DNA of 37,009 nucleotides from Escherichia phage PGX1. The notes beneath the pieces were generated by a model that had not been told where the DNA came from, searched no databases, and saw only the letters and a list, made by a program, of their open reading frames with translations. Made by a program: the position numbers and the translations under genes. The stretch lies in the sequence record OQ703770.1; one strand, given 5' to 3'. Positions 5,047 through 5,241 of the stretch are shown piece after piece. The first letter of the stretch is position 1, and the number at the start of each line of letters is the position of its first letter.

Positions 5047-5241
5047 ATGTGGCCCGCTTTATTATTCATCTTCGCTGCTTCCTCTCCGGCTGGAGGCTCA
5101 GTATCTCCGACTGTTACAGCTATTGAGATGCCAACTCTCAGGATATGCCAGTCAGTAGCAGAACAGCTTAAGGAGACACCAAAGCCGGGCAACGGATACG
5201 CTCAATACACTTACAAGTGCGTTGAGAAGAAGCCTAACTAA
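5047..5241 (+). CDS. Hypothetical small protein with a hydrophobic, signal-peptide-like N-terminus (64 aa); no T7 counterpart at this position
   Basis: ORF with SD aaggagg; MWPALLFIFAASSPAGGSVSPTV...; lies between gene 1.5 and phi1.6, where T7 has no gene. Confidence 0.55.
   Translation: MWPALLFIFAASSPAGGSVSPTVTAIEMPTLRICQSVAEQLKETPKPGNGYAQYTYKCVEKKPN

Follow-up and report, generated by a model that had tools for sequence, protein, structure and literature searches.

Between gene 1.5 and the promoter phi1.6 of Escherichia phage PGX1 (OQ703770.1) lies a 64-codon ORF with a hydrophobic N-terminus, in an interval where T7 has no such sequence. The locus raises the question of whether this ORF is a gene at all, and, if it is, whether the N-terminus exports the product or belongs to its fold. 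The sequence analysed here (the window) is the whole 37,009-bp stretch, a T7-like (Teseptimavirus) genome whose first 12 kb are ~90–92% identical to known members; the 451 bp around the ORF have 97% identity to Escherichia phage C5.

Layout of the locus

The DNA ligase gene ends at position 4880 and is followed by the early terminator TE (4888–4918, + strand), which consists of the hairpin GGCTCACC-TTCG-GGTGGGCC and the tail tttctgcgttt. Hairpin and tail are identical to the T7 stretch that bears the annotated TE terminator; a simple terminator scan missed the element because its T-run is interrupted. The last T of this tract (4918) is at the same time the first base of the promoter phi1.5 (4918–4940, + strand), which matches TAATACGACTCACTAAAGGAG exactly at 4918–4938 and aligns with the annotated phi1.5 of T7. 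Gene 1.5 (4948–5037, + strand) encodes 29 aa, a hydrophobic peptide that ends in an acidic tail (MMYLMPLLIVVIGCLALHCSDDDMPDGHA), matches phrog_12128 (E = 7e-22), aligns with T7 gene 1.5, and terminates in a TAA at 5035–5037. Overlapping this stop codon with its first bases, a Shine-Dalgarno sequence read as AAGGAGG (5036–5042, + strand) is positioned 4 nt 5′ of the ATG of the 64-aa ORF (5047–5241, + strand, ATG to TAA; MWPALLFIFAASSPAGGSVSPTV...). The TAA of the ORF (5239–5241) constitutes the first three bases of phi1.6 (5239–5261, + strand), a perfect TAATACGACTCACTAAAGGAG match at 5239–5259 that aligns with the annotated phi1.6 of T7. The coordinates of the ORF, its ribosome-binding site, and the overlap of its stop codon with the promoter, all proposed in an initial annotation of the locus, are therefore confirmed. 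The phi1.5 and phi1.6 matches are identical to each other, and the window contains 12 TAATACGACTCACTAAAGGAG sites versus 0 expected by chance. Judging from its position, phi1.5 drives gene 1.5 together with the 64-aa ORF. Gene 1.6 (5267–5527, + strand; 86 aa; PF06726, E = 3.6e-23), annotated as gp1.6 in C5 and T7, follows phi1.6.

Some features of the surrounding genome are recorded here in their own right. The gene 1.7 homologue (5527–5826, + strand) encodes 99 aa with the DUF3310 domain alone (E = 2.9e-24); the T7 gp1.7 nucleotide kinase has 196 aa and the C5 protein 155 aa, and by this size comparison the N-terminal part of the PGX1 protein is missing or replaced. An in-frame deletion affects gene 1, the phage RNA polymerase gene, at 3121–3210 (context 3050–3400), leaving a 29-aa ORF in which the first 8 codons of the polymerase (MNTINNAK) are joined to the last 21 (ALPAKGNLNLQDILKSDFAFA), as defined by the C5 termini. 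The window is ~2.5 kb shorter than the 39,551-bp C5 genome, roughly the missing polymerase sequence, and all phage promoters are intact despite the deletion. There is no obvious microhomology at the junction, so the genome looks like that of an engineered or helper-dependent gene 1 deletion phage, or like a defective one. A 152-aa HNH homing endonuclease (7400–7858, + strand; PF13392, E = 1.8e-10, plus the zinc-binding loop of homing endonucleases) is encoded directly after endonuclease I (gene 3); in C5 the lysozyme gene directly follows gene 3, and the HNH gene is therefore probably a mobile insertion.

Comparison with T7 and close relatives

In a three-way alignment of the window, T7 (NC_001604), and C5, the 169-bp gene 1.4 cassette located between TE and phi1.5 in T7 is missing from the window, bearing out the earlier description of TE as abutting phi1.5 with gene 1.4 absent. 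The window in turn possesses a 204-bp segment not present in T7 (5035–5238, + strand), comprising TAA, Shine-Dalgarno sequence, spacer, and 64 codons, which separates the final codon of gene 1.5 from phi1.6; a 3-bp TAA repeat makes its edges ambiguous (5035–5238 or 5038–5241). The stop codons of T7 genes 1.4 and 1.5 also coincide with the TAA of the next promoter, phi1.6 supplying that of gene 1.5, which makes the small genes of this region cassettes that dock onto a promoter. Comparison of the TE-to-phi1.6 interval across T7-like genomes showed the cassettes to be variably present: LNA7 and Yanou span only 247 and 239 bp at this locus, and so carry neither the 204-bp segment nor gene 1.4. The locus exemplifies the shuffling of tiny genes in this slot of T7-like phages, each cassette with its own ribosome-binding site and a stop codon borrowed from the TAA of the next promoter. 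Variable small ORFs are already familiar from the region, and the genome architecture as such holds no surprise.

According to the initial annotation, its reading would fail if the ORF were a relocated member of the gene 1.4 or 1.6 family. BLASTP of the ORF against T7 gp1.4 produced zero alignments at E ≤ 100; phrog_12128, the gene 1.5 family, matches the upstream 29-aa ORF and not the 64-aa ORF; and PF06726, the gene 1.6 family, matches downstream at 5267–5527, with no Pfam match above noise for the 64-aa ORF. A relocated gene 1.4, 1.5, or 1.6 is excluded by these results. Homologues were found in other relatives, as described below, and T7 is absent from the tblastn matches.

The gp1.5-like peptides, ~25–40 aa long, form a recurring class in which a single hydrophobic segment precedes an acidic tail, DDNMPDG or DDDDD. 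Every relative examined has them between ligase and gene 1.6, and several are uncalled in the records; examples lie at 4948–5037 in the window, at 2081–2203 in locus L002, at 4373–4486 in L009, and in intergenic stretches of L010, L012, L016, and L003. The VIGC motif of gp1.5 was considered as a lipoprotein signal and rejected, since homologous peptides have no cysteine at that position.

Evidence for a protein-coding gene

A short ORF that lacks a database family and is unannotated in C5, the closest reference genome, could be spurious, or a non-coding spacer that is open by chance. However, across 13 diverged loci the only stop-free frame is that of the 64-aa ORF, and all five other frames contain stops; the overlapping +2 frame (4991–5158) and the overlapping minus-strand frame (5034–5192) are interrupted within the gene in every locus examined. 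Substitution patterns point the same way, with dN/dS of ~0.07–0.3, synonymous sites near saturation, and dN/dS values of at most ~0.5 for all estimable pairs. Nonsynonymous divergence is far below synonymous divergence between the window and L010 (pN 0.13, pS 0.71) or L015 (pN 0.12, pS 0.94), and dN/dS is 0.10 between the window and L012. In addition, 17 columns are invariant at ~44% overall identity, each homologous copy either has its own AAGGAG(G) site or overlaps the gene upstream by 4 nt (ATGA), which would couple their translation, and the base composition of the ORF is like that of neighbouring genes. A lack of conservation in relatives had been named at the outset as a sign of a spurious ORF; purifying selection is observed instead. 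The selection and frame analyses effectively refute the spurious-ORF explanation, to which we attach a negligible probability, and the 64-aa ORF is, on this evidence, a genuine gene held by selection. Since codons upstream of Met28 are also under purifying selection, a shorter protein initiated at Met28 was rejected.

Distribution and age of the family

A tblastn search (E ≤ 10) of 50,697 phage records found the ORF in ten, all of them T7-like genomes. The sequence is 100% identical in C5 (two records, gene unannotated) and 97% identical in 'Enterococcus phage EFA-2' (L005, MT350293.1), where it is annotated as hypothetical. The latter was deposited as an Enterococcus faecalis phage; it is a Teseptimavirus ~90% identical to the window and to E. 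coli phages, and the Enterococcus host assignment looks doubtful. Homologues of 61 aa are present in Klebsiella phages Sibilus and NahiliMali, in Dickeya phages JA10, DchS19, and W2B (Ningirsuvirus), and in Escherichia phage P1723 (Foetvirus); over the stretch aligned by tblastn these are 47–53% identical. Uncultured T7-like phages also bear homologues, and taken together with those of Ningirsuvirus and Foetvirus the 61-aa proteins are 44–58% identical, with metagenomic relatives in protein databases down to 43% identity.

At 90% identity, the family amounts to 12 of 5.8 billion clusters. An exhaustive profile search of 1.84 billion representatives returned two family members and one 637-aa tandem-repeat protein (P0013; E = 2.4e-5 as a sum over 5 stretches of a short GY...C motif), which was judged spurious, its score being inflated by the repeats. 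A scan of IMG/VR yielded 3 loci, of which two correspond to C5 and JA10; a scan of JGI metagenomes yielded zero loci, and Pfam, NCBIfam, and PDB-sequence searches gave nothing significant for the family. The only match in the profile libraries is phrog_5579, a family that itself has no known function: it is matched by the P1723 homologue (E = 1.1e-4, residues 18–50) and reaches E ≤ 0.01 for 2/13 family members, the window protein being a weak match at E = 0.19. As far as these searches reach, the family is small, orphan, and confined to Studiervirinae.

The homologue is always found between ligase and gene 1.7, in one of several slots. In the window, as in C5 and EFA-2, it follows gene 1.5; L010 and L012 apparently share this order, with a gene 1.5-like peptide directly upstream. 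It directly follows ligase or TE in P1723, L009, and L016, and is situated between genes 1.6 and 1.7 in Ningirsuvirus. The 64-aa gene is carried by 3/254 phage records that match its flanks, and is a separable accessory cassette. The identity of L010 to the window is 79% for the 64-aa protein, compared with 83% for ligase and 73% for gp1.6, and the promoter-like sequences downstream of the homologues differ (TAATACGACTCACTAAAGGAG, TAATACAACTCACTATAGGAG, TAGAACTCACAATAGGAGG). Divergence that approximately tracks the flanks, together with these differing sequences, argues for an old, often-lost accessory gene and not a recent acquisition; the gene looks to be old in the subfamily and mostly lost, T7 included. 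The earlier description of a new ORF filling a gap is misleading in this respect.

In the most distant clade, at L009 4183–4284, the homologue overlaps by 4 nt (ATGA) a downstream 33-aa membrane peptide (MITLWCAAFWILVAFLAGL...), and the same 4-nt overlap with a similar, uncalled hydrophobic ORF was read from the sequence at L016 ~651–755. With peptides of 33–34 aa in both cases, the arrangement suggests a translationally coupled pair.

Although several genomes already carry the product as a deposited 'hypothetical protein', its annotation is missing in the closest reference, and literature searches on gp1.4/gp1.5/gp1.6, phage C5, signal peptides of T7-like phages, and the map of T7 gene essentiality turned up nothing on the 64-aa gene. 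The practical value of the present analysis is mostly one of annotation, in that it delimits an orphan family with clear boundaries and invariant residues.

Features of the N-terminal segment

The invariant residues of the family are M1, L5, L6, F7, I8, S12, G17, S18, P21, C34, K46, P47, G48, G50, Y51, Y54, and C58. Codons 1–18 (MWPALLFIFAASSPAGGS; 5047–5100, + strand) encode a segment that is a candidate for either a Sec signal peptide or a core β-strand. Codons 19–64 (5101–5238, + strand) encode a polar part with a predicted strand, a helix (residues 31–42), an invariant KPGxGY loop, and a last strand; the invariant cysteine codons lie at 5146–5148 (Cys34) and 5218–5220 (Cys58), both on the + strand.

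Several features of codons 1–18 resemble a signal peptide cleaved by signal peptidase I (SPase I). The hydrophobic run of 9–10 residues falls within the ~7–15 uncharged residues expected of an h-region; the stretch ALLFIFAAS contains no charged residue and has a 9-residue Kyte-Doolittle mean of 2.48 (2.2–2.9 across the family). Candidate sites with small neutral residues at –3 and –1 and no Pro at +1 occur in the window protein at residue 17 (AGG/S) and residue 18 (GGS/V), and the homologues have GSA/AP or GSS/SP at the aligned position. A compatible site is present at this same alignment position in 16/17 sequences, the exception being W2B (GPWSA, with Trp at –3), and the only indel of the family lies in the putative c-region. 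The 61-aa homologues read MK-ALLFILMASI-GQGSA/AP, a textbook n/h/c layout. Their n-region, MK, has a charge of +1; that of the window's clade, MWP(A), has a net charge of 0 over residues 1–4, so the basic n-region typical of Sec/SPase I substrates is lacking in this clade. A crude signal-peptide heuristic was passed by 2/52 + strand ORFs (≥40 aa) in the window. The other ORF to pass encodes 52 aa (1659–1817, + strand; MAILITVALFAVAGWYSESRKAARYHRKMV...), with a strongly hydrophobic N-terminus, and belongs to the early region, where it precedes the gp0.7 kinase.

Membrane-spanning helices are usually called from a 19-residue Kyte-Doolittle value of ~1.6. The maximum is 1.25 for the window protein and 1.25–1.5 across the family, and with a hydrophobic run of only 9–10 residues a transmembrane anchor is unlikely and was rejected as too short. 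A lipoprotein processed by SPase II was likewise rejected, since there is no lipobox and the first cysteine is residue 34 in every family member. The initial annotation had proposed a small secreted or membrane protein; secretion is plausible given the n/h/c layout, the cleavage sites in 16/17 sequences, and the two cysteines, whereas the shortness of the run makes a membrane anchor unlikely.

Signal peptides commonly change faster than the mature proteins they precede. Here, the N-terminal 21 residues are the better conserved part, with 17/19 identical residues versus 20/42 in the rest between homologues P0005 and P0012, and 16/19 versus 15/42 in a further pair. Synonymous divergence is alike in the two parts (pS 0.63 vs 0.67), which rejects DNA-level constraint as the cause and indicates constraint at the protein level, atypical of signal peptides. 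Such conservation suggests that the N-terminus has a role beyond targeting, and would suit an envelope-associated peptide whose N-terminus stays uncleaved, serving as a signal anchor or inserting at the membrane interface, and partners the tiny gp1.5-like or gp1.4-like membrane peptides. The ligase-to-1.7 interval of every relative holds 1–3 small hydrophobic peptides, and in L009 and L016 the homologue overlaps one such peptide by 4 nt, as noted above. However, the hydrophobic run gives way after 9–10 residues to Gly, Pro, and Ser, too short to span the bilayer as a helix, and canonical cleavage motifs are present; we regard this possibility as improbable.

Structure model

AlphaFold2 was run on a shallow alignment of 13 sequences, and the resulting five models range from 70 to 85 pLDDT. 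The full-length model (mean pLDDT 85.5, pTM 0.67) has strands at residues 4–11, 22–28, and 53–60 and a helix at 31–42. Residues 1–10 reach pLDDT ~90, the hydrophobic N-terminus being built as strand 4–11 of a beta-beta-alpha-beta fold. When residues 1–18 are omitted, the model (confidence ~82) retains only the helix and no sheet, from which we infer that strand 4–11 lies between the other two in the full-length model. For the JA10 homologue, the BFVD model superposes on the AlphaFold2 model with a TM score of 0.81–0.85; it derives from the same method and is not independent evidence.

Insofar as the model holds, the N-terminus could supply the β-strand at the centre of a split beta-alpha-beta domain, half-ferredoxin-like and ~60 residues long. 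The product would then be a cytoplasmic mini-protein, probably dimeric via an exposed hydrophobic sheet face, that inhibits a host cytoplasmic protein or has an anti-defence role. T7 offers precedents in the middle-gene products gp1.2 and gp2, which bind and inhibit host cytoplasmic proteins. A structural strand would account for the N-terminus being the best-conserved part at the protein level, and both the change of the N-terminal Lys to Trp-Pro and the Trp at –3 of W2B would be harmless; together with the modelled strand 4–11, these same features (conservation, the MWP start, and the W2B residue) weigh against export. However, the fold matches, which comprise split beta-alpha-beta/ferredoxin-like proteins such as PurS (2zw2, 2yx5) and the anti-CRISPR AcrIC8 (8g9s), share 3–14% identity and are generic for small α/β proteins, and the spread of the five models on so few sequences tempers the predicted fold. 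The LLFIF strand is also hydrophobic on both faces, leaving half of it exposed in a monomer, and so fits poorly in a monomeric two-layer α/β protein. The invariant G-S-x/x-P motif and the cysteine pair go unexplained by this fold, and suit processing and a periplasmic disulfide better. We consider a cytoplasmic protein the likeliest alternative to export, though less probable than it. If it is correct, it serves as a caution that a signal-peptide-like N-terminus can be a structural strand.

Proposed mechanism of an exported peptide

The reading that we favour, at about even odds, is that the gene encodes a Sec-exported, SPase I-processed, disulfide-bonded periplasmic peptide of ~46 residues that acts on the envelope. 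In addition to the signal-peptide features above, export is consistent with the absence of cysteine before residue 34 and the exactly two invariant cysteines thereafter, and with the small membrane peptides that relatives pack into the same interval. From these features we infer export, cleavage, disulfide, and target alike, and the sequence of events may be envisaged as follows. The gene is a genuine but non-essential accessory gene of T7-like phages. With host RNA polymerase halted at TE, a short distance before the ORF, transcription should be left to the phage enzyme alone, starting at phi1.5 and at phage promoters further upstream; the gene should thus be a middle (class II) gene, an assignment that follows from the layout and from knowledge of T7. 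As the last cistron before phi1.6, it would be translated from its own Shine-Dalgarno sequence. The first 17–18 residues would act as a short Sec signal peptide, with SPase I cutting behind ...AGG or ...GGS, or, in the 61-aa homologues, behind ...GSA or ...GSS, to release the ~46-residue peptide into the periplasm, where a disulfide would form between C34 in the helix and C58 in the last strand.

The periplasmic peptide would then act on an envelope component, and analogy with other periplasmic proteins of phages would make a second phage's entry, or a host factor in the periplasm, its most likely target. The roles suggested in the initial annotation, superinfection exclusion and modification of the envelope, are pure conjecture at this stage, with slight contextual support from the small hydrophobic peptides that neighbour the gene in all relatives. 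A far more specific version, and a long shot, is that the gene encodes a periplasmic effector exported by Sec, the first from a T7-group phage other than those of the lysis cassette, and that in this effector a 46-residue, disulfide-locked, incomplete split beta-alpha-beta core captures a hydrophobic β-strand in a manner resembling donor-strand complementation and thereby blocks superinfection or a periplasmic defence. The two strands of the core would flank a groove that is filled by the N-terminal strand in the precursor model, and the captured strand would come from a host envelope protein or from an ejection protein of the incoming phage. Should export prove true, the gene would be a rare T7-group middle gene acting in the periplasm and a candidate for superinfection exclusion or counter-defence, both of which are poorly understood in the T7 group.

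Comparison with known systems

The closest parallels in genomic terms are T7 genes 1.4 and 1.5. Like the 64-aa ORF, they occupy the same genomic slot, belong to the same size class, have a dedicated Shine-Dalgarno sequence, take as their stop the very TAA that opens the following TAATACGACTCAC promoter, and are polymorphic for presence or absence among close relatives. The proteins themselves differ: there is no sequence similarity between the 64-aa protein and gp1.4 or gp1.5, and whereas gp1.4 and gp1.5 are nearly all hydrophobic with a short acidic tail, the 64-aa protein has a 45-residue polar C-terminal part that contains cysteines.

The N-terminal segment compares with Sec/SPase I signal peptides, of which MKKLLFAIPLVVPFYSHS of M13 g3p is an example, in its length of 17–18 residues, its 9–10-residue h-region, the Gly or Pro at the h/c boundary, and the small residues at –3 and –1, to which the 61-aa homologues add the MK n-region. 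Unlike such signal peptides, the segment shows stronger conservation than the mature part, is placed within the fold by AlphaFold2, and has no basic residue in the window's clade.

With respect to function, the T4 protein Spackle (Sp) is a small periplasmic superinfection-exclusion protein that is made during lytic infection and carries an N-terminal export signal. The tblastn search of the ORF against the 50,697 phage records matched only the 10 T7-like genomes, with homology to Spackle not detected, and the T4 protein is considered here as a possible functional analogue only. The likeness is that of a small phage protein with an N-terminal export signal, which for the 64-aa protein is a candidate one.
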